A stretch of 64,000 nt of DNA from Klebsormidium nitens (taxonomy: Eukaryota > Plantae > Klebsormidiophyceae). Position numbers and translations under genes: made by a program. The notes beneath the pieces are model-generated. The model was not told where the DNA came from. It ran no database searches and saw only the letters and a program-made list of their open reading frames with translations. The stretch covers positions 72,563 to 136,562 of the forward strand of contig DF237177.1 of the NCBI GenBank assembly GCA_000708835.1. The letters run 5' to 3'. Below are positions 18,773 through 58,403 of the stretch, one piece after another (within the stretch, counting starts at the first letter, position 1; each line of letters opens with the position of its first letter).

Positions 18773-18989
18773 TCGGGCGCTTTAGTGTAAGTTGAGCCCT
18801 ATTCAGTGGCGGTACACACATTGATACATCATTTCGAGTAGTGTATCACGCTCCTAAACGCTGAAAGGCTGGCTCTTGAAAGATGCCAGATCATCTGCAA
18901 CGCTTACGACGGCCGGATTAAGGCACGATGCGTTGCCCTTGCGCATAAAGCATATCGCAAAAGAAGCCTGAAAAGAAGCCTGATACAAT

Positions 18990-19107
18990 TGATACGCCTG
19001 ATACGCATATTCACAGCAAGTGGTCCTGTATGTAATGCTTCTCTTTTTTGTTCTTCTTTGAAAAACTTTTGTATACTTTATGTGTGTATCTTGTATCAGG
19101 CGTATCA
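18990..19107. repeat. Inverted repeat with TGATACGCCTGATAC arms around an AT-rich spacer, 3' of the D5 gene
   Basis: Arm 18990-19004 is the exact reverse complement of 19093-19107. An extra TGATAC unit lies at 18981. Confidence 0.85.
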
Positions 19108-19298
19108 GCTCCACCCGGCGCACATTGCAGACATCATTCGCTTCCCTGCATCATTGAGAGAATGATAAATACTTCACCGCCCAGAATTCCGCTCATTTGG
19201 CATTTCAAAAGAACAGTTGGCAACAAATTCCGAGATTCCAAGATTGATACACATCCGTTCAAAACAACCAAATTGTTGTATCCGCTGTATCAGTCTGC

Positions 19299-20077
19299 CT
19301 ATGGGAGGTTCCCTTGCGCATCCGTCCGCCCTAGCTCCTCCTTGGTCTTCAAACGAATCCCAAAGAAACCTCTAAGCCGCTTCTTACCGTCGATCGTTCG
19401 AATCAAGATGGCTTTTCCCCGCTCTTGTGGGAATCCTTTCAATCGCATCGCTCTTGTCAAACCGTCCCCCGCCAATGCCACATCATGCCCACTTGAGTAC
19501 AGAAAGTTTGTGAAGGCCTCGACAAACTCGATCCTGGTGACGCTTGCCGCCTCTCCCTCGGCCGTTTCCTTAGTAGTGCAAGCCTCGTCTATGAAAAATT
19601 GAAGCTTGTCGTTCTCTGAAGCGTACTCCCTTACAGCCGCGGAGAACTCCTCGGGGACTGGCGAGAGAACCTTTGAGGCGGGAGCTAGTGCCCTCTTTGC
19701 GTAGTACATGATCGCCCCCTGAACGCAAAAGTCTAGAGTGTCCGCTGCTCCTTCATCCGATTCGAAATATGGCTTCAGGGTTACATCGATGGGCCTGTGC
19801 ATCTTGTTCGTTGCATCGAGCTCGTGGGGATTCTTGAACGTGTAGTTGAACATGAGCAACACAAGCCGTCGAATGAGAGCGGTGTCATCGCTTGGAAAGT
19901 CCGGCCTGTAGTTCGTGAACAAACAAAGCTTGTATTGTGGCACGTAACTCTGCGGTTTGCAGAACAGCTCACGCGCATCAAGCTCGCCACCACCGCTGGC
20001 CTCTTTCACAAAAGATGCGTGAAGCACCTCTCTTCCTTCCGATTCGTCATTCGTGACAAACGTCTTTGTTCGAATCT
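19299..20077 (-). pseudogene. D5-like SF3 helicase, C-terminal part, cut by an N gap
   Basis: Motifs FVTNDESEG (Walker B), IKEASGG-like VKEASGGGEL, KLCLFTNYRP, TALIRRLVLLMF, and a C-terminal wHTH-like region ending RGFFGIRLK. Confidence 0.85.
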
Positions 20078-20269
20078 NNNNNNNNNNNNNNNNNNNNACC
20101 ATGCCGCTAGGGAGCCAAAACTATGAGTGCCGGAATTGGCCCTACCTGATCCTGCGAACGCCCAGATGCCGGATCATATGCAACGCTTACGACGGCCGGA
20201 TTACGGCACGATGCGTTGCCCCTTGCGCATGAAGCATATTGCAAAAAGCGAAACGAATCTTGATACAAT

Positions 20270-20385
20270 TGATACGCCTGATACGCATATTCACAGCAAG
20301 TGGTCATGTATGTAATGCTTCTTTCTTTTTCTTCTTTGAAAAACTTTTGTATACTTTATGTATGTATCTTGTATCAGGCGTATCA
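20270..20385. repeat. Second copy of the TGATACGCCTGATAC inverted repeat
   Basis: Arms at 20270-20284 and 20371-20385. The region 20164-21360 is a near-identical paralogue of 18881-20077. Confidence 0.85.
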
Positions 20386-20576
20386 GCTCCACCCGACGCA
20401 CATTGCAGACATCATTTGCTTCTCTGCATCATTGAGAGAATGATAAATACTTCGCCGCCCAGAATTTGGCTCATTTGGCATTCCAAAAGAACAGTTGGCA
20501 ACAAATTCCGAGATTCCAAGACTGATACACACCCGTTCAAAACAACCAAATTGTTGTATCCGCTGTATCAGTCTGC

Positions 20577-21868
20577 CTATGGGAGGTTCCCTTGCGCATC
20601 CGTCCGCCCTAGCCCCTCCTCGGTCTTCAAACGAATCCCAAAGAAACCTCTAAGCCGCTTCTTACTGTCGATCGTTCGAATCAAGATGGCTTTTCCCCGC
20701 TCTTGTGGGAACCCCTTCAATCGCTTCGCTCTTGTCAAACCGTCCCCCGCCAATGCCACATCATGCCCACTTGAGTACAGAAAGTTTGTGAAGGCCTCGA
20801 CAAACTCGATTCTGGTGACGCTTGCCGCCTCTCCCTCGGCCGTTTCCTTAATAGTGCAAGCCTCGTCTATGAAAACTTGAAGCTTGTCGTTCCGACTCCG
20901 AAGCGTACTCCCTTACAGCCGCGCTAAACTCCTCGGGGACTGGCGAGAGAACCTTTGAGGCGGGAGCTAGTGCCCTCTTCGCGTAGTACATGATCGCCCC
21001 CTGAACGCAAAAGTCTAAAGTGTCCGCTGCTCCTTCATCCGATTCGAAATATGGCTTCAAGGTTACATCGATGGGCCTGTGCATCTTGTTTGTTGCATCG
21101 AGCTCGTGGGGATTCTTGAACGTGTAGTTGAACATGAGCAACACAAGCCTTCGAATGAGAGCGGTGTCATTGCTTGGAAAGTCCGGCATGTAGTTCGTGA
21201 ACAAACAAAGCTTGTATTGTGGCACGTAACGAGTCTGCGGTTTGCAGAACAACATCACGCGCATCAAGCTCGCCACCACCGCTGGCCTCTTTCACAAAAG
21301 ATGCGTGAAGCACCTCTCTTCCTTCCGATTCGTCATTCGTGACAAATCTCTTTGTTCGAATCTGCATGAGATGGCTTGAGGCCGCAGAGGCATTAGCCTT
21401 GAACGTGGGTTTGATGAAGATGGCCTTGTTCCCCGCACAATTGTAACGTCCAAAGGCCTTTCGGAGTGCTTGCTTCAACACTCCTTTTCCATTCGAGCCG
21501 CTATGACCATTCATGATGACAAACAACTCTTCCAACGTCTCTCCAATAAGACAATAGCCAAGGAACATCTGGAGCCACTCGATTGTCTCCAGTGGAAGAA
21601 CATCCATCAGGAATGTTCGGAATCTGGCAGTGGGGCGTGTGGAAGCACCCGGCACGTATCTAGTTGTCTGATTGATGCACAAGTTCTGAGGATGATGGGG
21701 GAGCAAAGCACCGGTTCGAAGATCGATCAACCCGTTTGGAGCATTTGCAACTGTGGGATCTTGATCAAATCGGTCGAGCAGACCATTTACGTGCAGCTCT
21801 CTAACTGCAGAGTGCAAGCACTTACGTACGTCAGCAACATCTTGGACGTTGATCCTTCCAAAACTTGG
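20577..21868 (-). pseudogene. D5-like SF3 helicase, C-terminal half of a second copy, frameshifted and interrupted at 21868
   Basis: Motifs ANAPNGLIDLRTG (D5_N), GHSGSNGKG (Walker A variant) and VTNDESE. The frame changes near 21245 and 20890. Confidence 0.85.
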
Positions 21869-23467
21869 TGTAACGGCACGACTGCGCACCGACTTCTGGC
21901 TGCGCGCCAAACTCGCGGCCGCGCATCGTCCGTTATTATACGCTATCGACTTATTTGATGTATCGAATCACTACACGACACGTGTCTGGGTTACTGTTCC
22001 ACCGCGTGACCGTCCGATAAGACCCACGTGCACCGCGTGCGAAGGGAACCGTCCGATAGGCTTTCGAGACTAAGTGTGACGGTTGGACAGGGTCACACGC
22101 TGCCTGTCTACTTCACATGTGCGGAAACCATGCGAAGCTTCTCAGCACGCCTTGGGATCACCTCGTGCAAGAGCGCCTCTCAGAAAATTGCGTCTTCTTG
22201 NNNNNNNNNNNNNNNNNNNNGAACAGCTCGCGAGCCTCAAGCTCACCGCCACCACTGGCCTCTTTTAGAAAAGACGCGTGAAGAACCTCTCTTCCTTCCG
22301 ATTCGTCATTTGTGACAAACCTCTTCGTTCGAATCTGCATGAGATGGCTTGAGGCTGCAGAGGCATTGGCCTTGAACGTGGGTTTGATGAAGATGGCCTT
22401 GTTCCCCGCGCAATTGTAACGTCCGAAGGCCTTTCGGAGTGCTTGCTTTAATACACCCTTTCCATTCGAGCCACTGTTGCCGTTCATGATGACAAATAGC
22501 TCTTCCAGCGTCTCTCCGGTAAGACAATAGCCAAGAAACATCTGGAGCCACTCGATTGACTCCGGTGGAAGAACATCCATCAGGAATGTTCTAAATCTGG
22601 CAGTGGGGCGAGTGGAAGCACCCGGTACGTATCTAGTTGTCTGATTGATGCACAAGTTTTGAGGATGATGGGGGAGCAGAGCACCGGTTCGAAGATCGAT
22701 CAACCCGTTTGGAGCATTTGCAACCGTGGGATCTTGATCAAATCGGTCGAGCAGACCATTCACGTGCAGCTCTCTAACTGCAGAGTGCAAGCACTTGCGT
22801 ACGTCAGCAACATCTTGGACGTTTATCCTTCCAAAACTTGGCATGATATTGTCAAGCTCCTTTGCGCACGTCTCCATGGCCATTTTGATCTTCCTCATCT
22901 GCTTTGGATTGACTAGATTGGAATCGAGAGGCTTAGGGACACCGTCAACCACAAACCCCTCCAACTCGGGACGGCTGGCGTACAAAGTGCCTAAACACCT
23001 CTCTCTCTGCCTGTCATACCATGCCAAGAGACAACCCATCTGACATGTAAAGAGGCTCGAAACCAGGTTCGAGGTGTCTTGTACCCACGATGTCCCGTCC
23101 CAGACAAAAAAGAGCTGATCTCGACTCCTTTCTGCTTCGTTCGTGGTCACGAGAACTCGACCCTCGATCATGTAATGATATGCAAAGAGGCGTCCGAGAT
23201 TGGCATATGCCTGGGGGGCCGCGTGCTCTTTGACAATCTGGAGAAGCAAGTCCTGAGTCTCTTGACTCCCTCTCGTGTATCGCGTAATTNNNNNNNNNNN
23301 NNNNNNNNNNNNNNNNNNNNNNNNNNNNNNNNNNNNNNNNNNNNNNNNNNNNNNNNNNNNNNNNNNNNNNNNNNNNNNNNNNNNNNNNNNNNNNNNNNNN
23401 NNNNNNNNNNNNNNNNNNNNNNNNNNNNNNNNNNNNNNNNNNNNNNNNNNTGTTCAGCGCCGCTTCA
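21869..23467 (+). mobile_element. Termini of an LTR retrotransposon-like insertion in the D5 gene; the interior is lost or collapsed in gaps
   Basis: Foreign sequence begins TGTAAC at 21869 and ends GCTTCA at 23467. It is flanked by a 5-bp duplication CTTGG (21864-21868 and 23468-23472) that occurs once in the uninterrupted copy near 22837. Confidence 0.7.
22221..23289 (-). pseudogene. Uninterrupted middle segment of another D5 primase-helicase copy or allele, placed between N gaps
   Basis: A 363-aa ORF overlaps in sequence with both the upstream and downstream D5 pieces and shows scattered substitutions. Confidence 0.75.
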
Positions 23468-25081
23468 CTTGGCATGATCTTGTCAAGCTCCTTTGCGCAC
23501 GTCTCCATGGCCATCCTGATCTTCCTCATCTGCTTGGGATTGACTAGATTGGGATCGAGAGGCTTAGGGACACCGTCAACCACAAACCCCTCTAACTCGG
23601 AACGGCTGGCGTACAAAGTGCCCAAACACCTCTCTCTCTGCCTGTCAAACCATGCCAAGAGACAACCCATCTGACATGTAAAGACGCTCGAAACCAGGTT
23701 CGAGGTGTCCTGTACCCACGATGTCCCGTCCCAGACAAAAAAGAGCTGATCTCGACTCCTTTCTGCTTCGTTCGTGGTCACCAGAATTCGCCCTTCGATC
23801 AAATACATATATGCAAAGAGGCGCCCGAGATAGGCGTACGCTTGAGGAGCGGCGTGCTCAATCACAATCTTGAGCAGCAAATCCTGCACATCTCGCGTCC
23901 CCCTTGTGTACTGAGTGACAACTCGCATGTCGTCGTGAGGATCCACGGGATCTGCGGTAGCATCTTGCAAGGCGGCCTTCAAGTTCTCCAAGACCCCCAA
24001 CTTTTTGACGGGCTTGTGCGAGCACTCGTCTCCATGGCAGCGGTAGTATACATGCAGTTCCCTCTTGAGCAGATTGAAGTTGTTGCTCCCCGAGTGCATA
24101 TGGCCAAAGAAGCACCGTCGAGGCCCATGCGTCCGGTAGCAATAGTATGTCCCGTACAGGCCGTGTGGTAACGACCCTGCGTACGTGCTTGTTGAATCGC
24201 CGGCCTTCTCTGACAGCAATTTTGAGAGTTCTGCCATCAAGAGCTCCCTGCCGTGTGGCGGTTCCAAACTTGGGCTCGAGCGATCTTGCTTGAAGCTTGG
24301 ACTTTCCACACGTCCTGGCATGGTTGCATCAATTCTTGCTCCCGAAACCTCGCCACCCTCCTCCTCATCAATTGTTGCCGCACCGGTACTATGACCTGCA
24401 TGATTGTTGACCAATTCTGCGAGCCAAATGGGCATAACTTGGCACGCTTCATAGCTGGGAGGTCCATTTATCCACTCATAGTATGTTGCAAGCTTGCCAT
24501 GAGCATTCAAGTAGCTCGTTGGTGAAGCGAACACAACACCACCGATTCCTCTTCCATCAACGCCAAAAGTCTTGTCGTCGACCTTGAGACCTTGAAAATT
24601 TCGTCTCCACTTGAGACCTGGAGAGTCGAGCTTGAAGTACAAGTGCAACCCACCAGAGCCGGTCCTTGCGTTCAGTGTCTCCGGCTCTCCGTGGATCTCA
24701 ACAAGTTGCTGCCAGAGCTCTGTCCCTGGTCGCTTCCCCCCTTTTGCAGCCACATCAATGTCTAGCACATACACTCCACTGACTCCAGCAAGTATCGCAA
24801 GCCCGTTTGCATCCCGCTTCTCCTTCATTGCTTGATTGATGGACCGCTCCCACTGCCTCTGTATCTTTGATATGTGCATACTTGTCAGGGAAGTCAGCTT
24901 GCTTCGAGCCTCTATTCCGATCGCAAGAGACGGACACTGGGAGTGCGTATAAGCCGTTGTTACAGAGTCGTTGGATCTCGTTCCTGATGCTGACGGGTCC
25001 TAGGGCCTTGGGGTCTCTGGCTGTCTGAGCCTTCCCCTGGGATCGAAAGGCGTTTGCCCGTTCAACATCCGACGTAGCCAT
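23468..25081 (-). pseudogene. N-terminal Prim-Pol (bifunctional primase/polymerase, AEP) half of the D5 primase-helicase
   Basis: Motifs NGLAIL, VLDIDV (DxD), RTGSGGLHLYF and VDGRGIGGVVFASP, plus a Zn-like C..H.S.N..C..C region. Frameshift near 24880. Confidence 0.85.
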
Positions 25082-25565: not shown

Positions 25566-26618
25566 CTAGAACTGGATCTTATAACCGTCCGGTCGGTAAT
25601 GGAGCTCATAGTGGCGCATCGCGATTGGTGCCGTATGCAACATTGACCTGGCAAGCTGGTCTCGTTCAGAGAGGCTCGGCGCATCCTTCATAGCAGTGCT
25701 GACAGTGATTTTTCGAAGGAGGCACGATCCCAGATTTGAGTCGGGATAGATGGCCGCTAAAAACTTTGTCAGGTAACCGGACCCCATTGGAGCATCTGGT
25801 GTTCTCATTCGGCTCAACAGGTACTTTCGCGGAAAAATAGCAAGACTTTCCGCAATCACGTTGCAAAGCCGGACCGGTATGTCGAGAATCTGCGGCCCGT
25901 GCGTTTTGCCGGTTTTGTAGGACTTCAGGTGGAGCCTATAGCTGCCCTTTGCATACTCCAGGAGGTAGTTGCGGGATCCCGCCATGAGCTCACGCGCGGC
26001 AGTGCTCCCAACCTCTTCGAAGCGCACGATGGGAAGATTGCTCCAATCATTACGGATCGCCGGCATTTGTGTGTACAAACAGAGCACGAGGTAGCGACAA
26101 AGCGTCACTTTGTCTCCAACTGTGACCTCTTCTGGCTTCTTTGGCGCGATGGATCGATTGACTTTTCGTTGAAGCTCGATGCGGCGTTGATTGATTTCGT
26201 CCAAGGACTTCCAGTTTTTGGCCTCACGCTCTGACATATGCTGGGGTGGTCGAGCTTCTTCCATGGCCTTTCTAACAGTACAGTATCGTTTGAAAAGTGC
26301 CTCGTAGGTCTGTTGATCACTGGGCCACAGTTTTCGGGCGATCACCAAGAGTGGACTTATGCTCGTGGCTTGTGTAGGCAATTTGTCTGAATACACGTTA
26401 TCCAGATACTCTATGATCTTGGTCGTATCTTTGACCCAGTCGAGATTCTCGAAATCCTCCCTCGAAGCATGCATGCTCTTAAAGAGGCGCATCACTCGTG
26501 CACAGTACTGCTCGACCGTGTGCGGCTTTCGTGTCGAGTCATCAAAGATTTCGTGAAGCAGCCGTTCTGCTGACGACAAAGTTGCTATAACCTTTCTGTT
26601 TGCATCTGAAGCTGCCAT
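25566..26618 (-). CDS. Tyrosine recombinase/integrase (virus/PLV-type), intact 350 aa
   Basis: Catalytic series R (PAIRND), K (YKT), degenerate HxxR (CLLRK), H (SMLHT) and Y (MRHY). Confidence 0.85.
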   Translation of the reverse strand: MAASDANRKVIATLSSAERLLHEIFDDSTRKPHTVEQYCARVMRLFKSMHASREDFENLDWVKDTTKIIEYLDNVYSDKLPTQATSISPLLVIARKLWPSDQQTYEALFKRYCTVRKAMEEARPPQHMSEREAKNWKSLDEINQRRIELQRKVNRSIAPKKPEEVTVGDKVTLCRYLVLCLYTQMPAIRNDWSNLPIVRFEEVGSTAARELMAGSRNYLLEYAKGSYRLHLKSYKTGKTHGPQILDIPVRLCNVIAESLAIFPRKYLLSRMRTPDAPMGSGYLTKFLAAIYPDSNLGSCLLRKITVSTAMKDAPSLSERDQLARSMLHTAPIAMRHYELHYRPDGYKIQF

Positions 26619-27509: not shown

Positions 27510-28480
27510 TTGATGACGTCAGCAGCCATTCCACCAAATTATCCGAATAATGGGTAGAATGGCCGGACATCATGTGCATGTACCGACCAATACCACCAAT
27601 TATCTGTGATCACTGGCGCAAAGTTGTCTCAGCGTCCGTGTTTTTCACGTACTTTTTGAGAGCGGCCCCTCTGATGACGTCAGCAGCCATCCCCACCAAT
27701 AATGCTCTGTAATCAACGGTGCGAAGGTGTNNNNNNNNNNNNNNNNNNNNCGATCGTACTATTGCGGTTCTAGCGCTTTCAAGAACCGCTCGGTCCATCT
27801 GCTCGATCGCATACGTAGTCGGAGGACGAAAGCCTAAGATTGCATCCATTGTGAGGCTAGAGTACGGTCGACAAAAGAAAGCATAAACCAATTGCCAATC
27901 TGGTTGGTCCACACCATACATGCGGCTTTGAAGAGAAAAACGTGAAGCTCTTGTTAACCATTGGCAACGTGTGGACTAGCAAGCAAAAAATGCCTTGCTT
28001 TCCTAAATGTATGGTGGATGGCCGGCCCGATTTGGCTGGTCCACACCTTGCATGCATGGAGTCAAGCAAAGGGGGTCGGGCCGAGGGGGTCAGGCTAGAG
28101 GGGTCAGACAAAGGGGGTCAGGCTAGGGGGTTCAGATAAAGGGAGTCAGGCTAGGGGGGTCAGGCTAGGGGGGTCAAATAAAGGGAGTCAGGTTAAGGGG
28201 GTCAAGCTAGGGTGGTCAGACATTGAGGGGGTCAGGCTAAGGGGGTCAGACAAAGCGGGTCAAGCAAAGGGGATAAAGCGACTTGAAAAATCCATCAGAA
28301 TTCGGACACTTGGACACTTTCGCGCCATTGATCACACACAAAAAGCGCAGGGAATGGCTGCTGACGTCATCAACAATGGTTGACTTGAGAACTCTCATCA
28401 AAAACTCGGATACCGTACCTGGACGCTTTTCGCGCCATCGATCACAGGTGACAGCGCAGAGGAAGGCTGCTGACATCATC
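27510..28480. repeat. Inverted repeat family TGATGACGTCAGCAGCC: two direct and two inverted copies
   Basis: 27510-27532 is a perfect 23-bp reverse complement of 28351-28373. Further copies lie at 27672 and ~28461-28480. Confidence 0.75.
28071..28265 (+). repeat. G-rich short tandem repeat (GGGGTCAGGCTAG-like)
   Basis: More than ten degenerate GGG(G)TCA(G/A) units with G-runs of 3-6. Confidence 0.8.
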
Positions 28481-28519: not shown

Positions 28520-29010
28520 GACGTCAATTTGCACCAGCTTGAAAACCTTGATGTATAGAACGGTGGTGCAAATTGTCAGCCGCCACGCCGCGCGCTTTTT
28601 GGGTATATTGTAGCTGATTGTGGCATTGCCTGCTCACAAGTGTTGACAATCTGCACTGGCTTGAAAGCCTTGATGTATAGAACGGTGGTGCAAATTGTCA
28701 GCCGCCACGCCGCGCGCTTTTCGAGTATATTGTAGCTGATTGTGGCACCGCCTGCTCACGAGTGTTGACAATCTGCACCGGCTTGAAAGCCTTGATGTAT
28801 AGAACGGTGGTGCAAATTGTCAGCCGCCACGCGGCGCGCTTTTCGGGTATATTGTAGCTTATGGACGAATGACTCGGTGTCAATTTGCACTGGCTTGAAA
28901 GCTCTGATGTATAGAACGGCGGTGCAAATTGTCAGCCGCCACGTCGGCGCGCACTTTTTGGGATGTTGTAGCTGATGGTGGGAATCCATCGTGATTGACA
29001 GATCGCACCG
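28520..29010 (-). repeat. Array of 112-122 bp units with a palindromic core (GACAATTTGCAC..GTGCAAATTGTC), left arm
   Basis: GGTGCAAATTGTCAGCCGCCAC starts at ~28565, 28687, 28809 and 28921, in reverse orientation relative to the 29540-30760 array. Confidence 0.9.
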
Positions 29011-29180
29011 GCAAGATGGGGCCTCGCACGGACCGGGTATCCGCCGTCTCTATGGATGCTCCGTAGCACGTCTACCGAGTACGACAGCCGGTGCATGTGA
29101 TACGCTGGCCTTTGTTGTGCCGCTTCACACACTTAAGGAGATCGTGAGTCTCCAAGAAGCACCAGATCCAGATCTTTGCA

Positions 29181-29531
29181 ATGATTTGCCTACCAGACGG
29201 AAGCCATTTGTGTCGTGCGGTGGGCGTAAGCTTTGAAGGCAGGCAAGCTGCGGTGCGCACCCTTCGACCAGGGCAAGAGCTGCTGCTCGTTAGGGATGCG
29301 ACGAACGAGCACGATCCGCATTCCATCGCGATCTTCAAGGCGGGAGATCTGGGCTCGCACCTTGGGTTCGTCGGGCGGGACAGCAACCATCACGAGGCGT
29401 TTGACGCGGCTCGTGCGGGACGGACACAGTCTGCACTTGTGCACAGCGTCGGCCCCTGCAGCAGCAGCGGACTCTGGGGGTACACCATGAGGGTCGGGGC
29501 ACCTCATGATAGCTCGAGTATTATTGCATGA
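29181..29531 (+). CDS. Stand-alone HIRAN domain protein
   Basis: AVGVSFEGRQAAV..L.PGQELLLVRDATNEHDPHSIAIF..LGFV matches the HIRAN pattern (R-E-P-x-N-x-x-D-x-N-A-I variant). Confidence 0.8.
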   Translation: MICLPDGSHLCRAVGVSFEGRQAAVRTLRPGQELLLVRDATNEHDPHSIAIFKAGDLGSHLGFVGRDSNHHEAFDAARAGRTQSALVHSVGPCSSSGLWGYTMRVGAPHDSSSIIA

Positions 29532-29539
29532 TTTCGTTG

Positions 29540-30760
29540 TGGCGCGGTTGACGATCTCTACCATGGTGCTATACACCAGAGCTTTCCGATCGGTGCAAAT
29601 CCACTCCGATCGACCATAGCCGAAAGCGCGCGGCGTGCCAGGTCGGCTGACAATTTGCACCACTGTTCCATACATCAAGGCTTGCAAAGCGGTGCAGATT
29701 GTCAACGCGGAGGCGTTCTCACCTCCAGCTACAACATCACTGCAAAGCGCACGGCATGGCCGGTTGACAATTTGCACCACCATTTTAGATATATCAGAGC
29801 TTTCAAACCAGTGGCGATTGACGTCGAGGTGTTTTCGAGATCCACTCCAACATGCCGGAATGCGCCCGGCGTGGCGACTAACAAGATGCACCACTGTGCT
29901 AAAGATTATAATCTCAAAGCAGTGCAGATTGTTGACAATGAGGTCTTTCTTCCATCAACTACAACATCGCTGAAAAGTGTGCAACATGGCGGCTGACAAT
30001 ATGCACCCCCGGTCTATACATCAGAGCTTTCAAGCCAGTGCAAATTGTCGTCGAGGTGATTCCACGATCACCTTCTACATGCCGAAATGCCGTCGGCATG
30101 GCGGGTGACAATATGCACCACCATGCTATACATCAGAGCTTTTCAACCGGTGCAGATTGACGTCAAGCTGTTTCCACGATCGACGGCTACTACATGCGAG
30201 AAAGCGTCCGGCGTGGCGGCTGACAATTTGCACCACCGTTCTATACATCAGAGCTTTCAAGCCAGTGCAAATTGTTGTCGAGGTGTTTCCACGATCACCT
30301 TCTACATGCCGGATTGCGCGCAGCATGGTGGGTGACAATATGCACCACCATGCTATACATCAAAACTTTCCAACCGGTGCAGATTGACGTCATGCTGTTT
30401 CCACGATCGGCTACTACAGGCGAGAAAGCGCGCGGCATGGCGGGTGACAATATGCACCACCGAGCTATACATCAGAGCTTTCAAACCAGTGCAAATTGTC
30501 AACGATGAGGTCTTTCTTCCATTAACTACAACATCGCTGAAAAGTGTGCAGCATGGCGACTGACAATATGCACCCCCGGTCTATACATCAGAGCTTTCAA
30601 GCCAGTGCAAATTGTCGTCGAGGTGTTTCCACAATCACCTTCTAAATGCCGGAATGCGCGCGGCATGGCGGGTGACAATATGCACCACCGTGCTATACAT
30701 CAGAGCTTTCAAACCAATGCAAATTGACATCGAGGTGTCTTCACGATCGGTCACAACAGC
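29540..30760 (+). repeat. Array of about 11 units of ~113 bp with the same palindromic core, right arm
   Basis: Repeated TGACAAT(T/A)TGCACC-ACCG.TCTATACATCAGAGCTTTCAA-CCAGTGCA(A/G)ATTG separated by more variable ~55-bp linkers. Confidence 0.9.
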
Positions 30761-40540: not shown

Positions 40541-40704
40541 CTGGTGAGGAAAGACAGAGAACAGGGATCAGGAACACACTTCAAGAAGTGTCAGACTTCA
40601 GCAAGTGTTGCAGAAGATGCTCGCCCTTAGAGGATTTCTGGCAGATGCGATAAACACACGACACTTGAAAACAACAAGCTGGGTAGGTCCAGGAAAGTGT
40701 CCGG

Positions 40705-41065
40705 CATGGGGCTGACAATTTGCACCACCAGTCTATGCATGCAAGCTTCTCAGCCGGTGCAAATTGTCAACCCTCGAACCATCGATCACCACAGAAAGTA
40801 GCCGGGAAAAGGCCCAGCATGGGGCTGACAATATGCACCACCAGTCTATGCATGCAAGCTTCTCAGCCGGCGCAAATCATTCAGGCCTCGAACCATTAAT
40901 CACCACAGAAAGTAGCCAGAAAAACGCCCGGCATGGGGCTGACAATATGCACCACTGGACTAAGCATTTGAGATTCTCACCCGATGCAGATTGTCAGACC
41001 CTCGTATTTATCCGAGAACCAAGGACAGCGCCCGGTATGGGGCTGGAGCTGACAATCTCTACCAG
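40705..41065 (+). repeat. Third array of the ~113-bp palindromic-core repeat (3-4 units)
   Basis: CTGACAAT at 40712, 40825, 40939 and 41049. The first unit reads TGACAATTTGCACC..GGTGCAAATTGTCA. Confidence 0.85.
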
Positions 41066-41659: not shown

Positions 41660-42050
41660 GTGGAGTTGACCAGTCAAAACTTCCCTTGCTAGTATAAGCA
41701 TTCCAATCTTTCAAGGCAGAACTTTTGACTTCCAGATGTCCCCAGGCCAATCCAACAGTGATCCTGCAGGCGCTTGGAGCGGCAGCGCCCACCAGTCAAA
41801 ACTTCCCTTGAACATGTAAGCATTCCAACCTTTCAAGGAAGAACTTTTGACTTCCAAAGCTCCCCGGCCAACCCAACAGTGCTCCTGTAGGCGCTTGGAG
41901 CGGCAGCGCCCATCAGTCAAAACTTCCCTTCAAAGTATAAGCATTCCCGCCTCAGCCCTGATCCTAACAGTGTTGTACGGATCAGCGCTGGGGGGCAGTC
42001 AAAACTTGCTCCATGAATATAAGCATTCCAAACTTCCAAGGCTGACATTC
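41660..42050. repeat. Tandem ~122-bp repeat (CAGTCAAAACTTCCCTT..AAGCATTCC)
   Basis: Unit starts at 41671, 41793 and 41914, with a partial unit at 41996. Confidence 0.8.
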
Positions 42051-50268: not shown

Positions 50269-52331
50269 GAATTTGTCGAGGCGGAAGCATCACCAACAGT
50301 AGCTAACTCAAAATTCCTGCAACGAAGATTGATATTTTGCTGCTGTTGATCTGTCTGTACTGAAAGAGCAGCGCAAGAACAAAGCCAGGAGTTGCAAGAG
50401 AGTCCAGCAGGCAGGAACACTTTCAGGAATTTGCCAGAGCGACGTCCCGTTTAAGACTAGCGATGAAAAATGCGGGCAAGCATGTTACTTACGACGTCCT
50501 GCAGAGCTGGGGCCTGCAGCTGCTGGACAAGATAAGATGCAACTTGTCAGCAGCGAAGAAATTGAGTCTGCCGGTAAGAAGGTCGCGATGGCTTTGATTC
50601 TCAGCAGCAACGACCTGCTAGAGCAATGCACTGCCTTTCTTTGAAAGCTCAGCACCCCTACTGAGGTGACACAGTCTCATGATCATATGCTTACTTACCA
50701 AAACAAAAGCACACGATCAAGCACGCATGAACATAACATTGCAAAATGCTAATGGACATCAAGATTAATTAGGAAACTGCTGTGACTACCTGAAACTGAA
50801 AGACTGACGTATGCACCATACCTAGCATACACTCAGCTCAGAGAAACTGTTGACTCAACCTCATCCCACCTAACACTCCAAAAGAACCCGGAAGCAGAGG
50901 GACAGTCTCCAAACAGGCCCCAACACACTGGAGGGTTGGTGTCGATCACTACTTGTCCCTTAAACCAGAGAGCTCCAGCACTCTGCCAGATTGCGGCATG
51001 CACGAATGCTTTTGCATAGGTTTACTGTCAGATGAATGTTCTTCTGAAGCATAAAGACCCTCTGACTGGGGTGGTGCAAACCAGGGCGTCTACCCCGACC
51101 TAGAAAGCTCCAGCCCTGTGCTCAATTGCAGGCATGCGCGANNNNNNNNNNNNNNNNNNNNNNNNNNNNNNNNNNNNNNNNNNNNNNNNNNNNNNNNNNN
51201 NNNNNNNNNNNNNNNNNNNNNNNNNNNNNNNNNNNNNNNNNNNNNNNNNNNNNNNNNNNNNNNNNNNNNNNNNNNNNNNNNNNNNNNNNNNNNNNNNNNN
51301 NNNNNNNNNNNNNNNNNNNNNNNNNNNNNNNNNNNNNNNNNNNNNNNNNNNNNNNNNNNNNNNNNNNNNNNNNNNNNNNNNNNNNNNNNNNNNNNNNNNN
51401 NNNNNNNNNNNNNNNNNNNNNNNNNNNNNNNNNNNNNNNNNNNNNNNNNNNNNNNNNNNNNNNNNNNNNNNNNNNNNNNNNNNNNNNNNNNNNNNNNNNN
51501 NNNNNNNNNNNNNNNNNNNNNNNNNNNNNNNNNNNNNNNNNNNNNNNNNNNNNNNNNNNNNNNNNNNNNNNNNNNNNNNNNNNNNNNNNNNNNNNNNNNN
51601 NNNNNNNNNNNNNNNNNNNNNNNNNNNNNNNNNNNNNNNNNNNNNNNNNNNNNNNNNNNNNNNNNNNNNNNNNNNNNNNNNNNNNNNNNNNNNNNNNNNN
51701 NNNNNNNNNNNNNNNNNNNNNNNNNNNNNCGACCCCTGGTACGACCCTCCCGACATTATCACACCTTTAGGCTCTGGGGGTATGACGGGGCGCGCTGTGA
51801 TTCGCCCAAATTTAACACCGAACTTCATTTGGCTTGCTGCGGGTCAATGGCTGCGGACCGCACGACCCTCGCACCGGGGGGGACACGTGGCTCCAATCGG
51901 GCGGCTAAAATTAAGGCCGAAGTCCGCTTGGTTTGCTTACCAAGCGGACTTCGGCCTTATTGAACAGCCAGGATGCGTCCTACCGATCCCTAAGTTCGCG
52001 CGATCGATCGGACGGCCGTGAAAATTCGAAATTTAGCATAGCGTCAGGTGCCGGTAAACAATACCGGAGAGGATTTTGCCAGCTGGCCCCCCGCTGCGAA
52101 CTCGGCGGACCGCCGGGGCGGTTCGAAGCGGTTACTATCGAATCTCGAGCCTTCCGGCGGGCCGCCGTCCCGGGCAGCAGTCCAGTCTAGACGCGAGACA
52201 TACTTAGGGAGAGAGAGAGGCCGGAAGGATGAGCAAAGATGGTCGGATATAGGCAGTGTCAGTCGAGCTCCCAGTTGGTTCACGAGGGGCAGCCTTCGTG
52301 CATGCGGATGCATGCTGGGGGGGTTTCGACC

Positions 52332-55300
52332 ATGGCAGCCCCTACTGAGCAGTACCAGGCTTCGGATCTAGCTCACATTGGACACGGTTTGTACTATATA
52401 GGCGAGGACAGCGTCCGACCTTCCGAGATAAGCCGGATTTCGGGCAGGTGCATCACCTGCAGGCAACAGATTTGGAAGGGCACAGGCAGTATAGACGGGG
52501 TGTTGAGGCTGAGCTTCCGCAAGAGTGCAATGAAGGGCTACCTAGTGAGCTGCGGTGTGCCCAAAAACAAACAGAGGAAGCAGATCATTTGCCTCGCGTG
52601 CGTGGGCAAGCTGATGGGGGAGCTGAGGGTCGGCGCTGATGCAAGCAGCTTGAGTTTGTGCGAGCGCGGGCATGACCAGCAGGATGGGGTGCTGTTCGAG
52701 AGGCTGCCCTCAGGCAGCTGGAAGCAGCAGCTGGCATTGACGGACGAGTTGCTGGAGGGGGCTGTGGCTGCGAACGAGAGCTCCGTCTCAAGAAAGAAGC
52801 CCAGAAAAGCTGCAGCAAATACGCTGAGGGGATTGCAAGCTGGAAAAAGACCGCGTGCAGAGCCGGTGAGTGCGCATGCCGTGCTTATTTTCTTCTTAGG
52901 TTCTATGTGCAAAACGACCAGATNNNNNNNNNNNNNNNNNNNNNNNNNNNNNNNNNNNNNNNNNNNNNNNNNNNNNNNNNNNNNNNNNNNNNNNNNNNNN
53001 NNNNNNNNNNNNNNNNNNNNNNNNNNNNNNNNNNNNNNNNNNNNNNNNNNNNNNNNNNNNNNNNNNNNNNNNNNNNNNNNNNNNNNNNNNNNNNNNNNNN
53101 NNNNNNNNNNNNNNNNNNNNNNNNNNNNNNNNNNNNNNNNNNNNNNNNNNNNNNNNNNNNNNNNNNNNNNNNNNNNNNNNNNNNNNNNNNNNNNNNNNNN
53201 NNNNNNNNNNNNNNNNNNNNNNNNNNNNNNNNNNNNNNNNNNNNNNNNNNNNNNNNNNNNNNNNNNNNNNNNNNNNNNNNNNNNNNNNNNNNNNNNNNNN
53301 NNNNNNNNNNNNNNNNNNNNNNNNNNNNNNNNNNNNNNNNNNNNNNNNNNNNNNNNNNNNNNNNNNNNNNNNNNNNNNNNNNNNNNNNNNNNNNNNNNNN
53401 NNNNNNNNNNNNNNNNNNNNNNNNNNNNNNNNNNNNNNNNNNNNNNNNNNNNNNNNNNNNNNNNNNNNNNNNNNNNNNNNNNNNNNNNNNNNNNNNNNNN
53501 NNNNNNNNNNNNNNNNNNNNNNNNNNNNNNNNNNNNNNNNNNNNNNNNNNNNNNNNNNNNNNNNNNNNNNNNNNNNNNNNNNNNNNNNNNNNNNNNNNNN
53601 NNNNNNNNNNNNNNCCCAGAAAAGCTGCAGCAAATACGCTGAGGGGATTGCAAGCTGGAAAAAGACCGCGTGCAGAGCCGGTGAGTGCGCATGCCGTGCT
53701 TATTTTCTTCTTAGGTTCTATGTGCAAAACGACCAGATGCCGGAAGCCAACCACAGAATATGCTGCCGCTGCAGCAAAAGGAGGGAGGACATGCGAGCTA
53801 TCTCTGATGCAGTCGATGCAGAGCTCTTCGGCAGTGCAGAGTTCGCTATGCACATCCTTGAATTGATCGAGATGTTCAGGTCTATGCCTCCAGCTTTGAG
53901 GGTCCAGATCAGAAGGATATTCGATAGCAGTGACGAGACATCATAGCACCGCCCGCATGCCGCGTGCTGCCTTAAGAGTTTCCGCAAAACCCTGAACAGA
54001 TAAACATCCGGCATCACACTTGCAGGTGCTCGAAGAGGGAGAAGAGAGCGCAGACCATCGCGGCGACGTTGCGACGCAGGCCGCGCGCTTCCTGAAGCGC
54101 ATCCCGGATGGCACTTGCGTCGTGGTGTTGCCGGTGGGGCAAGGCCTCCGAGGGGGCTTCCTGGGGCGGCTCTATCTCACCGCATGGGATCACAATCGCG
54201 CGAAGCCGAAGCCGCTGGGGAAACCTTGCAAAGGGAAGGGGTTGCTGGAGGAAGCATGTGGGACCAGCAGGGGCGCATCAATTGCACGTGCGATCGTAAG
54301 AGGCTGGCCCTAGATGCGCCGTGTGTCCACAAGATGGTGCTCGCGTCCCTCTGCGCGGGCTCCATCGCCACCAGCGTGCTACCGACCGCAAAGGAGATGA
54401 GCAGGGAGGCGCTCACGGTCGAGCAGCTGGGAGCCGACTCCAGCGGGGCCTTCTACGCCGTCAGAAACAGCCCGAAGGGGGTGAGCCCCGAGCACAGGAT
54501 GCTACACCGGTCCACGGCGGGGTTGTGGTATTGCGAGGGAAAGCGGAATGGATGCCCGGCTCAGTACGACTGCTCCCATATCGCGGCTGCCAAGGTCGCG
54601 CTGACGCATGGGCAGGTGCAGCGCGCGGAGGGCTTGCTTCTGGACTCTGTTGCCTTGAGCAGGGCGACTCAGTGGATCGAGCACTGGGAGGGCAGACTGC
54701 CGCTGCTCGGTGAGGCCAGCGGTGGCCGGGGAGCTGGGATGTTTGAAGAGGAGCGACGTCCGCCTGCGGCGATTGCAACAGGAGAGCATGGGGGCGTGGA
54801 GTGTGCAGGGGGTGAGTGTTGGTGCCGAAAGCACCGGCTGATCTTTGGGGAGGCGCAGCCCCCCTCGGACGCCATGGACTCGGAAGGACAGGTGGAACTC
54901 GGAGCGAGCACCCCTCAGAGGCAGGTGCGTAGGGGAGCCAGGTATTGGGCAGAGCACGCCAGCGAGATGCCGAGGGGCGCACCTCGCAGGGCCGAAGAGC
55001 CGCCGGGGGATGCGCGGGGCAAGGAGGCCGTACATGGCTGGGTGGCTGCATGCCATAGCTGCAGCCTGACTGAGGTGCAGCAGCAGGGGTGCTCCCATGC
55101 GGAGGCGGAGCGCGTACGGGCGCCCATCATGCTATTGGGGACGGAGGCCGCGCAGATCACCCAACCCAAGCTGAGCAAGCTGGGCGACGCCCTCGATCAT
55201 CATGATCCATTGATCGGCTGCCTCAAGGCAGGGCCGGTCCGAGTGAGCAAGCTCTGGGACTGTCACTTCCGAGAGCTGAGCGAGCTGGGCATGCTGAAGG

Positions 55301-58260
55301 CGCCGTGCCCGCTTCAGCCTCCCCCCTGCGGCGGCGAGTGGGTACTGCACAAGAAGCCGGCCCTCATCTCAGCCTCCACCTGGTCGCAGCAGGTGGAGAC
55401 GAAGATATACTGCTGCCAGTGCCTTCATACGGCGCACACGGTGCACTTCTGCGGAGAGCATCTGGGCCTCTACAGCTGGACTCAGGGGACGATCCTGGTG
55501 CAGGAGAGTTTGCAGCTCATCCTGAAGGGAATGCAGCGCTCGGGCACGGCCTTCTCCGCCGAGCTCGGGAGGGATCAGGAGGCTTTCGCCCGATCCCCAG
55601 GGTCTATAGTCTTATCCGACGAGAGCTGGAGGCGGGCGAGCCTGGACTTCTTCAAGCTGGTCGGGCGGGAGATCTCAGAGTGCTGTACTATCTGTGGGCC
55701 CTTTCCAGAGGTGAGCATATCTTGCAGCGAGGTCTCCTTTGTGGGAAGCTCAGCCACGTCGATTGGAGAAAGGTCCGAGGAAGCGCGGTGCCTCCAACGA
55801 GGTCCCGGAGCGAGTTCATATTCAAATCACCGCTTATCTCATCGGCAGACACGTTTCGGGTTGAGGAAGTGGAGTGCCACGCTGTCATGTCCATGCTGTG
55901 TTATCAGTCGAAGGTTTGAAACACTCGAGTATTCCCGCGCTGTCTTCTGGACGCCGGCGTCATCCAATCTTAGGGTGAACACTCTGATCCTTTGCCAGCT
56001 AGTTTCCTTAAGCTCTTGCTCGTCTCATCCAGGTGCTTCTGGTTGACGGGATAGTGGGCGTGGCGAACTCGGATGGTGGGAAACGTCCTGGAGGCTTGGG
56101 CAGCTCCTCTCTGGATTGCAGACGGACGTTCGTCCACCCTAGCCGGCAAGCGGGGGGCGAGCTGCTCGAGAGGCAGCCCGTCTCCGGGCGGGACTATTGC
56201 AGCGCCGGGTTGGAGGGGGCTGGAATGAAACGAAGGCTGGTCCTGCAGCCGGAGCTACGAGAGCTCATCGCGCGCCTCTCTCAGCATCGCCCCACGTCAG
56301 AGAAGCTGGGGCAACGGCTTTGCGAGGTGGAGTACACGGAGCTGAAAGCCGGGCTGGGGCGGAAGGACGTGCAGGTGGTCCGGCGGTTCATTCCGGGCGA
56401 GGGAGAGCAGCAGCCGGTGGCCGCGGAGACCAGGAGGCGACTGCTCGCGCAGCAGTGCTCACGCAATGGTGCGTGAGAAGAACCGCGCGATGCTGCGGCT
56501 CCTGGAGGGCATTGAGGCGGACCTGCAGGCGCGCGGCATGAGCCCGCGGGTCTGAGAGTACTGGCCCTGAGAGTGGGGCGAGCTCCTTTACGATCTCGGG
56601 GCTCACGACGCCGATTGCGGAATCATCGGGCACTCGGGAGGCCTCGCAGTCATCCGCCGGTTGCTGCTTGGGGACGAGGCCACCCCGGAGAACCGCAGGC
56701 TGCTGGGGGCGCACAGCCCAATCCTCCGTCGTGTCTTGGATGCCCACGGCGGGACCCAGTTCCCCCGGTTCTTCCTGCCGGCTCTGCATAAGCTCTACGA
56801 GCTGACCTTGCTTGCGCGAGGGGGGACAGGTTTCGAGGATGCGGAGCGCGACGGCTGGGTGGTGGCGGCCCTCCGCCCGCTCGGGCATGCCGTCGAGTTG
56901 CAGCGGGTTGCTGCAGATAGGCCGTTGAACGAGCAAGAGGCGGCGTTACTAACGTATGCGGCCGCGACCGCTCGCTCTTGGCTGCACGGCGTCGAGACGC
57001 TCGAGCCGTCCCCAGCGCAGTGGACGGACATGAGCCAGCGGGAGCGGGACCTTCTCTGGCAGCGGCTCGGCCTCGACGAGGAGGGGGCCAGGTTGCATCC
57101 GCTTCCGCCGGGACACAGTTTCCGAGCCGAGCAGGATGCGCTGACGCACTACGCGTTGCCGCCGGGGTGACAGCAGAAGCGCGGGCTCCCGAGGTATTCC
57201 ACCTTCGAGCACCCCGACGGCAGGAGCAAGACGTCGGAGGAGACCAAGTGCAACTCGGGGAAGACGGAGACCGAGTGGGATGCAGCGAATACCCCAGGGC
57301 TCACGCGAGGTGGCGGCAAGGCGAGCAAGCCCGGAGGTAAACGCCCGAACAAGAGCAGGGGGGCAGTCGTGTTTTGCTGCACCCATCGCGTGATCTACGG
57401 CTTCCACGTGATGCTGCGGGGGGAGAGCCCGAGGGACGTCTTCGCGGTCCTCTACACGCGGCTGAACCGGGGGCACCTCCCGAAGTTTCTGGTCTATGAC
57501 AACGCCTGCGCGCTGCGAAACTACTCCATGCGCCGGGAGCCCGCCTTCTTTGCCGAGGTCACCTTCACGGTCGACCGGTGAGTACTTGCGACCCATTGCA
57601 ATCGTGCCGGTATGGATGCAAGGCGATGGGGGAAGGGCCGTTAGGGCGATGCTATTAGAATGATAGCAAGTGGAAGAAAGAGAGGGCGTCAAACCAAAAA
57701 ACCAAAACACCAATTATTTTAGAGGTTGTGTATATAGTATAGGCTGTATTAGATTCATAGAAATCTGATAGAGATCTCTAAAAATTTTGGTGTTTTTGGT
57801 TTTTGGTTTTCGGCCTTTCTCCTCTTGCTTTCTACTCACCCCGGCTGTTGCATGCCGCCAATGTTCTGCCAGCAGATCAATGTACCGATTCGTCCATTAT
57901 CCTCTAGAGGCTTGCCCTGAGCTTGATCGTACATCATCCAACGCCCCCTGCAAATGTCGGTGCAGGTTCCATTACGCAAAAGCTGGTGCGGAAGTCCACA
58001 AGTGCGGGCCCAGCAACGCGACGGAGTTCTATGACGAGCTTCGGTGGGTCAACACGAGCGCGGTCGAGAGCGTCAACAGCTTCTTGAAGCGGTTTAGGAC
58101 GCTGGGGTGGTACTCGGGGCTGGAGAGCTTCATGGTATTCCTCCCGATCCTTCTGAGCGGCTACAACGTTGACATGAAGAGGGTGGATGATGCCAAGCTG
58201 GCGGTAGCTATGCAGGCGAGGCAGTGGAGCGATGCCATCAGGGCAATGTTTTTAGAATGA
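52332..58260 (+). pseudogene. KDZ/Zisupton-family transposase copy 2, disrupted
   Basis: SWIM motifs CTCD..CVHK and WYC..C..CSH. The core reads CTHRVIYGFHVMLRGESPRD, VYDNAC, VDR|FHY..HKC, NTSAVESVNSFL. Introns 55711-56032 and 57578-57965 sit at the same positions as in copy 1. Frameshifts near 54255 and 56465; in-frame TGA at 56553, 56568 and 57168. Confidence 0.87.
57691..57809. repeat. Intronic copy of the AAACC-armed inverted repeat
   Basis: AAACCAAAAAACCAAAACACCA .. TGGTGTTTTTGGTTTTTGGTTT, near-identical to 58288-58403. Confidence 0.85.
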
Positions 58261-58287
58261 GAGCAAGTGGGGGTTTAGAAGGGCGTC

Positions 58288-58403
58288 AAACCAAAAAACC
58301 AAAACACCATTTATTTTAGAGGTTGTGAATAGTATAGGCTTCACTATATTCTATAAATCTGATAGAGATCTCTAAAAAATTTGGTGTTTTTGGTTTTTGG
58401 TTT
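58288..58403. repeat. Inverted repeat with AAACC-iterated arms, inner TTTTAGAG/CTCTAAAA arms and an AT-rich spacer, abutting the D5 stop codon
   Basis: Arms at 58288-58309 and 58382-58403. The D5 stop codon is at 58404-58406. Confidence 0.85.

Follow-up and report, generated by a model that had tools for sequence, protein, structure and literature searches.

Inverted repeats lie behind the D5-type primase-helicase genes on a Klebsormidium nitens scaffold, and the question they raise is whether they start replication, recombine DNA or end transcripts. The window (the whole stretch analysed, 64,000 nucleotides) contains two diverged elements, family 1 and family 2, each with the order KDZ transposase, repeat, PrimPol-D5 (SF3) helicase and tyrosine recombinase, in which the transposase gene converges on the other two genes at the repeat. 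The original prediction had left the choice between origin and recombination site. The repeats are likely replication origins of the pRN1/SaPI type, belonging to the adjoining PrimPol-D5 (SF3) proteins, and the terminator and recombination-site readings fit worse.

Two elements and their genes

The transposase gene of family 1 (13603..18772, plus strand) has CxC4 and KDZ-like exons and a GT-AG last intron. Its 5' end is uncertain, and the gene is broken by one gap and by frame changes. Its counterpart in family 2 (54004..58260, plus strand) has exons 66-68% identical to those of the first, and its 5' part likely extends over a gap towards about 52240. The Pfam matches to CxC4 in gene 1 (E 4e-4) and to KDZ in gene 2 (E 0.006) were both under the cutoff, and gene 2 also matched Atlas clusters in which every member (100%) carries KDZ (score 0.96). 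On these weak sub-cutoff matches and the Atlas clusters, a KDZ transposase with a CxC cysteine cluster is present. Contigs revealed many diverged copies of the KDZ element in the genome.

The primase-helicase genes lie on the minus strand, at 19299..24999 in family 1, assembled as overlapping pieces over four N gaps, and at 58404..61344 in family 2, in three stop-bounded reading frames. Prim-Pol and D5_N exceeded the Pfam cutoff, and Pox_D5 matched at E 0.05. D5 copies occupy at least seven annotated K. nitens loci. The family-2 gene is split by stops and is continuous in relatives; judged from its sequence, this copy looks broken. Further along the same strand are the tyrosine-recombinase-like genes (25566..26618 and 61785..62816), which are 44% identical to each other. 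Gene 1 matched Phage_int_SAM_1 at Pfam E 0.03 only, and its type was assigned from Preplasmiviricota/Nucleocytoviricota clusters; the recombinase is of the type found in Polinton-like viruses (PLVs) and NCLDVs and retains the R, K, R, H and Y positions. The window thus holds a module of primase-helicase and tyrosine recombinase, as in Polinton-like viruses. A capsid or packaging ATPase was found neither among 40 ORFs searched with Pfam nor among 12 searched with PHROGs; divergent capsids can escape such libraries, and family 2 continues beyond the window edge. Four candidate regions yielded no terminal repeats, and neither element ends nor target duplications turned up in the window, with gaps lying near the expected ends. 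The element copies in the window look defective, so the origins here may be relics.

Architecture and conservation of the repeats

The window contains four inverted repeats. Three had been predicted and were confirmed, whereas a fourth, inside the final intron of the transposase gene of family 2, had been missed. In every copy, 3+3 inward-facing hexamers flank a core of 72-81 bp. The repeats are real features of the sequence: in 30 locally shuffled versions of the window, scores of at least 15 arose 0.03 times per window and scores of at least 16 never, as against observed scores of 15, 15, 19 and 19. No other 50-mers in the window are as AT-rich as their four cores (76-78% AT), which also account for four of its five least stable ones. 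An Rfam search gave no matches.

The first family-1 candidate origin (18981..19107) consists of three TGATAC hexamers with a 9-bp period, an 81-bp AT-rich core and three inverted hexamers, one of them imperfect. It includes perfect 15-bp arms (18990-19004 and 19093-19107) around an 88-bp spacer that is 68% AT. An inward-facing hexamer pair lies at 18822..18848, 49 bp past the KDZ stop (18770-72); three such pairs were found in the window as opposed to 0.02 expected from 100 shuffles. A satellite cluster of one forward and two reverse hexamers (19245..19292) adjoins the D5 stop (19299-301) and is still present in a contig that has diverged (joints 19109->19244 and 19294->19578). The family-1 arms are indeed built from TGATAC, as predicted, but the motif extends beyond them: the 527-bp intergenic region holds 11 GATAC-type hexamers, all in inward-facing groups. 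The second family-1 origin (20261..20385) lies in a 1.2-kb, 95%-identical duplicate (20164-21363) that begins directly after an N gap, and its repeat (20270-20385) has an 86-bp spacer with 71% AT. This origin probably belongs to another family member scaffolded here.

The family-2 candidate origin (58288..58403) carries three A(A/C)ACCA hexamers per side, with periods of 8+8 and 9+7, and the inner hexamers stand 72 bp apart across an AT-rich core. Its 34-bp arms (58288-58321 and 58370-58403) differ at five positions and enclose a 48-bp spacer with 71% AT. The transposase stop lies at 58258-60, and the right arm directly abuts the D5 stop (58404-06). The distance from repeat to D5 stop is therefore 0 bp in family 2 and 191 bp in family 1, where the satellite cluster comes within 6 bp. 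The position predicted for the repeats, between the KDZ and D5 stops, applies to the copies at 18990 and 58288 but not to that at 20270, which as assembled has no preceding KDZ stop. Across the four copies the spacers measure 48, 51, 86 and 88 bp; the predicted length of about 70-90 bp fits family 1, and in family 2 it is true only of the distance between iterons.

The intronic copy is the exception in location, being away from a D5 gene. Here a 229-bp sequence (57637..57858) is 82% identical to the junction of KDZ end, repeat and D5 end, and 75 bp separates the inner hexamers of its repeat (57691-57809). One contig from run X8 also covers this duplicate. Imperfect 8-mers (6/8) border it. Such a copy would suit repeats that were MITE-like non-autonomous elements, or chance local duplications, inserted behind D5 genes, and a contig from run X8 lacks the insertion (joint 57593->57882) flanked by those 8-mers. 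However, the intronic piece carries KDZ-end and D5-end sequence outside the arms, which makes it a copied junction and not an arm-bounded unit. Within the window, moreover, each arm pattern occurs solely at KDZ-D5 junctions, and two unrelated sequences hold the same position in the two families. We regard insertion of this kind as very improbable.

The location between two convergent stop codons could also suit an RNA hairpin that ends both transcripts, as a bidirectional terminator or polyadenylation hairpin. Folding of either strand is much stronger than in shuffles (z -3.9 to -9.3), and the D5 strand has an AATAAA at 58310-58315; any inverted repeat, however, gives a strong fold. None of the five mismatches is G-U on either strand in either family-2 copy, and both copies preserve a shift of one base in the register of the arms, a pattern more in keeping with sites for a protein than with base pairing. 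The GT-AG intron before the last KDZ exon holds an intact copy, in which AATAAA is replaced by AATAAT, and the extra hexamers that remain unpaired are left unexplained. A role in ending transcripts is accordingly quite improbable.

Comparison between copies showed where conservation is concentrated. The two family-2 copies match at 66/68 columns in the arms, 42/51 in the spacer and 81/110 in the flanks (Fisher p 5e-5). The contrast is weaker in the family-1 duplicate, with the iterons matching at 45/45 positions and the rest at 346/374 (p 0.058), a point against the origin reading. Diverged family-1 contigs from run X1 align at the KDZ exon, then at an arm and then at D5, with joints at 18675->19079 and 19111->19585, at 18723->18981 and 19004->19585, at 18725->19084, and at 19009->19084. 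Their summed depth is 345 and 430 over the arms, 133 over the spacer and about 50 over the right flank.

Arms conserved in this way might instead be bound by the tyrosine recombinase or the KDZ transposase, the repeat being a recombination site or a fused left and right element end. Tyrosine-recombinase core sites of the loxP/att/dif type have two inverted arms and a 6-8 bp spacer, as against 48-88 bp here. Both sides of the repeat are flanked by element genes, not host DNA, in both families and in the diverged contigs, and a better-shaped candidate for such a site, with 21-bp perfect arms and a 6-bp spacer, lies at 51912-51959. On the other side, the recombinase has its R, K, R, H and Y positions, the stray intronic junction indicates that DNA around the site has moved, and the gene order equals the PLV 'end module', whose repeats are proposed for both roles in the account consulted (PMC11296320). 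A dual role as origin and element end is possible, whereas a site for recombination or element ends in place of an origin is improbable, and this half of the original prediction is not supported.

The layout behind other primase and helicase genes

We searched viral contigs (IMG/VR) with the family-1 pattern and found 21 loci, 15 of them distinct. Fourteen of the 15 lay beside or within a primase or SF3-type helicase gene, and in 11 of the 15 the pattern stood 24-111 bp 3' of the helicase or primase stop. Two of the neighbouring genes encode D5 proteins related to the algal one (E 2e-44 and 3e-48). Nine of the 14 neighbours were of the VapE type and partly interrelated, so that the 14 are not independent cases. 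The recombinase profile, which is narrow, matched at none of the 21 loci, so the structure occurs behind primase-helicase genes without a match to this profile, a further point against a recombination site. The family-2 patterns gave 0 loci and 1 locus in viral contigs, the single one inside an ORF with D5 absent nearby. A permuted hexamer, intended as a negative control, matched 10 loci that marked similar structures, five beside D5/VapE/DUF5906 genes and five in one related group beside terminase genes. The inverted-hexamer layout is therefore general and not exclusive to helicase genes.

The layout was also sought from the protein side. Close D5 relatives with available DNA were not found, and the viral-contig protein scans gave 0, 1 (distant) and 0 loci. 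The scans of metagenomes and of GTDB gave 28 (22-34% identity) and 20 distant loci, respectively, which were reused as blind tests. From 29 protein-anchored loci we dropped L028, which lacked a D5 ORF at E<=1e-10, and L003, L006, L007 and L022, which had <400 bp downstream; from the 20 GTDB loci, L067 and L070 were dropped as too short. Counts use one member per 60%-identity cluster. In the first test, inverted hexamer doublets near the stop were found in 9 of 16 clusters, each positive cluster with its own hexamer, but behind none of 128 other genes and in none of 11 upstream regions. Applied again to the GTDB loci, this strict rule performed weakly, being positive at 2 of 18 loci (2 of 9 clusters) and at none of 86 controls. 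A long-loop stem rule, devised after that GTDB result, detected 10 of 25 as against 1 of 89 controls at a score of at least 13, with the window repeats scoring 15 and 16. Control genes were thus nearly devoid of such structures (0/214 for the strict rule, 1/89 for the stem rule), which speaks against the transcript-end hairpin. The D5-anchored test suggests a rule for finding origins, namely an inverted iteron block about 300 bp or less 3' of the gene.

The protein probably has the parts that an origin of this type would use. A model of the family-2 protein (pLDDT 87.7) aligned over residues 1-394 with the SaPI5 protein PriRep (7OM0; Z 25.8, rmsd 4.7, 336 aligned), and the whole-model alignment reaches into the C-terminal domain of PriRep5. 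The D5 fold also matched ASFV C962R and poxvirus D5. The tail model of family 1 matched RFX5 (Z 6.9, rmsd 3.4, 78 aligned) and the P4 origin-binding domain (Z 5.0, rmsd 3.8, 80 aligned); its topology fits a winged helix and most of the best-scoring structures are winged helices, all at Z < 8. Foldseek with the tail domain alone found nothing at E<=0.001. From these models, a C-terminal winged helix is probable. The proposed co-divergence of site and protein is compatible with a C-terminal domain only 24% identical between families whose origins are unalignable, but it concerns two families, and no simple code linking hexamer to recognition helix emerged across 23 proteins. Indeed, two viral D5 proteins beside the family-1 hexamer have a recognition-helix sequence that differs from that of family 1.

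A probable plasmid-type origin and its relatives

Taken together, the iteron layout, AT-rich core, position, arm conservation and protein domain order argue for a replication origin. The repeats lie 3' of a primase-helicase gene, and have at least two opposed 5-6 bp iterons per side around an AT-rich centre; their cognate protein carries both a primase and an SF3 helicase domain. The origin half of the original prediction is thereby well supported, also by the same layout behind unrelated D5/VapE genes and by the probable winged helix. By analogy with pRN1 and SaPI, the winged helix would bind the inward-facing hexamers, two hexameric helicases would load, one on each side, and the AT-rich core would melt; the PrimPol domain would then prime and host polymerases extend. 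The iterons would differ between families because the winged helices have diverged. A PLV-type module of recombinase, primase-helicase and origin may have been joined tail-to-tail to a spliced KDZ gene, and the element could amplify outside the chromosome as a recombinase-excised circle, or in place.

The origin type itself is already known. Whether the elements form an undescribed class of self-replicating DNA transposon in Klebsormidium, with a KDZ transposase, a capsid-less replicon, incompatibility-like families and a plasmid-type nuclear origin free of host licensing, is a more tentative matter, which we consider possible but somewhat doubtful. The replicon would in that case comprise tyrosine recombinase, PrimPol-D5 and iteron origin, each family having its own iteron and winged helix. 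In the literature searched, mostly open-access main texts, we found no account of such an origin in a nuclear KDZ-recombinase-primase element and no paper joining Klebsormidium, transposable element and Zisupton; such an element may nevertheless be listed in Repbase or in a supplementary table. D5-type origins in eukaryotic viruses and mobile elements are proposed, not mapped, in the literature consulted here. Because the 120-bp candidate origin exists naturally in two forms, each with its own cognate protein, a clean specificity swap is possible. If the origin reading is true, one protein and a short site would suffice as a minimal replicon, independent of the host, for streptophyte algae (the relatives of land plants), and one branch of the KDZ transposons would be self-replicating.

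Several known systems resemble the algal elements. KDZ (Kyakuja-Dileera-Zisupton) elements are described with 7-8 bp target duplications, terminal repeats present or absent, and TET/JBP cargo (PMC12730594). The algal elements share with them a CxC4 and KDZ-like transposase with introns and many diverged genomic copies; the word 'primase' is absent from the main text of that paper. The PLV 'end module' consists of repeat, primase-helicase and tyrosine recombinase, and its repeats are proposed as origin and integration substrate (PMC11296320). The same three parts occur in the same order here, also in a eukaryote and with a recombinase of the same type. However, the PLV repeats are about 300 bp and are equated with terminal repeats (PMC11296320), whereas the algal repeat is about 120 bp, internal and iteron-built, and searches of the window detected neither capsid nor packaging genes.

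In the Sulfolobus plasmid pRN1, a ~100-bp inverted repeat with a 21-nt stem and a 58-nt loop starts 54 bp 3' of the gene, and relatives keep the origin structure with a different sequence (PMC4234260). The domain order of its ORF904 (PrimPol, SF3, winged helix) is that of the algal protein, in which the winged helix is probable. The pRN1 stem-loop, however, is described as lacking iterons and as less conserved than its flanks (PMC4234260), while the algal arms are built of iterated hexamers and, within a family, have changed less than the flanks, a reversed pattern that counts against the origin reading. The SaPI origin lies directly 3' of an SF3 primase-helicase gene and has six or more opposed 5-6 bp iterons around a central AT-rich region (PMC9371898). 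SaPI/PICI elements, with PriRep5 or Rep1 plus ori, differ from the algal ones, which have a eukaryotic host, a spliced KDZ transposase gene as neighbour, a primase of the Prim-Pol type (PF09250), no packaging-interference genes seen in the window and an origin that is a candidate. The two are alike in origin position, iteron layout, the structural match to PriRep5 and the presence of a tyrosine recombinase in the element.

Inverted repeats 3' of the D5 genes

Scanning the window for inverted repeats with loops of up to 200 bp returned six, of which four are treated here: the family-1 repeat at 18990-19107 and a second one at 20270-20385 (score 15 each), and the family-2 repeat at 58288-58403 and an intronic one at 57691-57809 (score 19 each). 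Thirty shuffles gave 0.03 repeats per window at a score of at least 15, which confirms the inverted repeats originally predicted 3' of each D5 (primase-helicase) gene; the prediction gave the other copies but overlooked the one at 57691-57809. This copy sits in the last intron of the KDZ transposase gene KDZ2, with the donor and acceptor intact, and is part of a 229-bp duplicate of the junction between KDZ end, repeat and D5 end. If the repeats were a MITE, the gene ends inside the intronic piece would be left unexplained. The 20270 copy lies within a 1.2-kb duplicate starting just past an assembly gap.

The repeats are best read, from their sequences, as iteron clusters. In family 1, TGATAC hexamers at 18981, 18990 and 18999 are followed by an 81-bp core and by reverse hexamers at 19086 (imperfect), 19093 and 19102; with two inward-facing satellite groups (18822-18848 and 19245-19292), the 527-bp region holds 11 motifs, the hexamer background being near 0.06 per kb. 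The family-2 repeat carries three A(A/C)ACCA hexamers on each side of 72 bp, with periods of 8+8 and 9+7, and terminates on the D5 stop codon. The four repeat cores are the four AT-richest 50-mers in the window and make up four of its five least stable. A terminator of convergent transcripts would account for the placement between convergent stops and for the strong RNA fold. However, it explains neither the absence of G-U pairs nor the retained register shift, the unpaired hexamers and the intact intronic copy.

When the two family-2 copies were compared, 66 of 68 aligned arm positions were identical, against 42 of 51 in the spacer and 81 of 110 in the flanks (p 5e-5). The family-1 duplicate showed the same direction without significance (45/45 vs 346/374, p 0.058). 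In sequencing run X1, from which the window itself may derive, diverged family-1 copies align at the last KDZ exon, next at an arm alone and next at D5, in contigs that we infer by pairing joints of equal depth; the summed depth, which is not a copy number, is highest on the family-1 arms. In run X8, labelled as another organism, contigs span the family-2 repeat (58280-58458), the repeat-D5 junction (58375-58791) and a stretch in which the intronic copy's right half is joined to the last KDZ2 exon (57733-58215), and one further contig is without the intronic insertion. In run X5, C>T and G>A differences dominate over 57000-59500 (59 and 66 places; other kinds at most 10 each), a pattern resembling a base-converted library, and the many C's retained would fit methylation of the element.

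Gene blocks and the D5 protein

Both blocks have the same gene order: a KDZ-family transposase (+), a converging PrimPol-D5 gene (-) and a tyrosine-recombinase-like gene (-). This order equals that of the PLV end module, for whose repeats PMC11296320 proposes a double role as origin and as integration substrate, and it would favor a recombinase site. Such a site, however, should have a short spacer and lie where the element ends, and neither is the case here, so that the recombination-site half of the original prediction is not sustained. Between the families, identity is 66-68% in the KDZ exons, 44% in the recombinases, 36% in the D5 helicase region and 24% in the D5 C-terminal domain, and the two repeats show no alignment (195 of 500 shuffles score equally well). 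Protein searches found the family-2 D5 ORF to be identical to KFL_002280230 of Klebsormidium nitens, which identifies the window as part of a scaffold from this alga, along with more K. nitens copies and relatives at 39-97% identity. Because the KDZ, D5 and recombinase genes are linked in both families and also in several diverged contigs, we infer that they move as one unit; no ends of the element were found. The family-2 D5 is split over three stop-bounded frames, whereas the same region is continuous in relatives, and this copy is therefore probably dead. In family 1, the D5 region is a patchwork of overlapping segments that are 89-95% alike, as might be expected from scaffolding of a repeat family. 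The D5 relative P0010 reads on in frame into sequence matching the family-2 KDZ intron region, which suggests that a copy elsewhere was rearranged by inversion or deletion.

The family-2 helicase half gave a confident fold model (pLDDT 87.7) that matched ASFV C962R (Z 28.8), poxvirus D5 and SaPI5 PriRep (Z 25.8, rmsd 4.7, residues 1-394). The family-1 tail model (pLDDT 69.9) matched RFX domains and the P4 origin-binding domain at Z 5-7, individually weak; its top matches are mostly what we take to be winged helices, and the model is consistent with a winged helix. The likely recognition helix does not vary within family 1, and family 2 has a different one. The predicted co-divergence of site and cognate protein is compatible with this difference, but two viral D5 proteins adjoining TGATAC arrays are without the family-1 helix sequence; covariation of iteron and winged helix is plausible.

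Other repeats were observed in the window. Upstream of KDZ2, two perfectly matching 21-bp inverted arms 6 bp apart (51912-51959, RNA fold z -10.9) resemble in shape a recombinase core site or a subterminal site for a transposase. These arms contain a 15-bp motif that recurs at 51818 (-) and at 13252 (+), the latter upstream of KDZ1, and 13252-13274 matches 51810-51832 exactly over 23 bp. The family-1 element may have its right end at a 14-bp G-rich unit repeated 15 times in tandem (28058-28272) and flanked by an imperfect inverted repeat (27672-27730/28314-28372). On either side of a separate gene block lie arrays of 112-122 bp units (28520-30750 and 40700-41000), which may serve another replicon as binding arrays; each unit has an imperfect inverted 14-bp motif ~30 bp apart, and block 28520-28980 is inverted relative to 29640-30750. 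A third replication module (30978-38032, - strand) is apparently broken into several frames; its ORF at 33962-34723 matches the herpes origin-binding helicase family (E 4e-15), and an upstream 600-aa ORF has primase-like motifs by eye, with no match in Pfam and PHROG searches. A tandem array of 121-bp units (41669-41947, 2.3 copies) adjoins an assembly gap.

The arrangement at viral and other D5 loci

The family-1 pattern, two hexamers at a 9-bp period, then 70-100 bp, then the mirror image, was found at 21 IMG/VR loci, or 15 once near-identical ones were removed. Fourteen of the 15 lie beside or in a gene for a primase or an SF3-type helicase (2 D5, both relatives of the algal protein, 9 VapE-like, partly related to each other, 2 DUF5906 and 1 Prim-Pol), and the pattern lies 24-111 bp 3' of the stop at 11, on the 5' side at two and inside the ORF at one. 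A permuted hexamer gave 10 loci: 5 adjoin helicases of these kinds, and the other 5, which form one related group (2 of them scanned in Pfam), adjoin terminase genes.

A strict rule modelled on the window's repeats (a hexamer of any sequence, present twice at 7-12 bp and mirrored 30-120 bp away) returned the four repeats and nothing else there. Among D5 genes fetched by protein alone, it was satisfied at 14/24 loci and in 9/16 clusters, each cluster with its own hexamer, compared with 0/128 other genes; a second D5 set (GTDB) gave 2/18 loci and 2/9 clusters, with 0/86 controls. A stem rule devised after the GTDB result gave 16, 15, 11 and 10 of 25 D5 genes at scores of 10, 11, 12 and 13, against 17, 4, 3 and 1 of 89 controls; on this scale the repeats of the window reach 15 and 16. 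From these tests, the predicted conservation of architecture with divergence of sequence therefore holds broadly for D5 3' regions, although not for all of them.

In nine viral contigs, a TGATAC iteron block, a candidate origin of that phage group, lies 24-39 bp beyond a VapE-like primase-helicase gene, and an SNF2-type helicase comes next in 8/9. In five related viral contigs, terminase genes are preceded by a block of inverted TAGTAC iterons whose core is very AT-rich; the contig DNA examined contains no helicase.

Comparison with known origins

By analogy with the SaPI, pRN1 and PICI origins, the algal repeats are likely replication origins of the pRN1/SaPI type. PMC9371898 describes 6-12 short SaPI iterons immediately 3' of rep, split in opposite directions around an AT-rich center and bound by the winged helix, with self-loading of the helicase. 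In pRN1, according to PMC4234260, a 100-bp inverted repeat, variable in sequence with its structure kept, lies 54 bp 3' of the PrimPol-SF3-winged-helix gene; it is needed for replication, which is restored by a moved repeat. A primase-dependent PICI origin is a functional conditional origin in E. coli (PMC11338833). In the algal element, the D5 protein would bind at the iterons, a double-hexamer helicase would be loaded and the AT-rich core melted; priming would follow, and the host would carry out elongation.

In the literature searched (mostly listings), we found no description of a nuclear multi-copy algal element combining a spliced KDZ transposase with a recombinase-primase-origin module. 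The main text of a paper on KDZ elements (PMC12730594) does not mention a primase. PMC5294986 lists NCLDV-like core genes in Klebsormidium. AEP replicases are reported to accompany tyrosine recombinases, a functional link called elusive, in the part of bioRxiv 10.64898/2026.10.13.758929 available, which mentions neither iterons nor KDZ. What appears new is thus the setting, a nuclear multi-copy algal KDZ element, and not the origin type, already known from archaea (pRN1, PMC4234260) and bacteria (SaPI, PMC9371898). As in SaPIs, the algal repeats have short iterons 3' of a primase-helicase gene, opposed around an AT-rich core.
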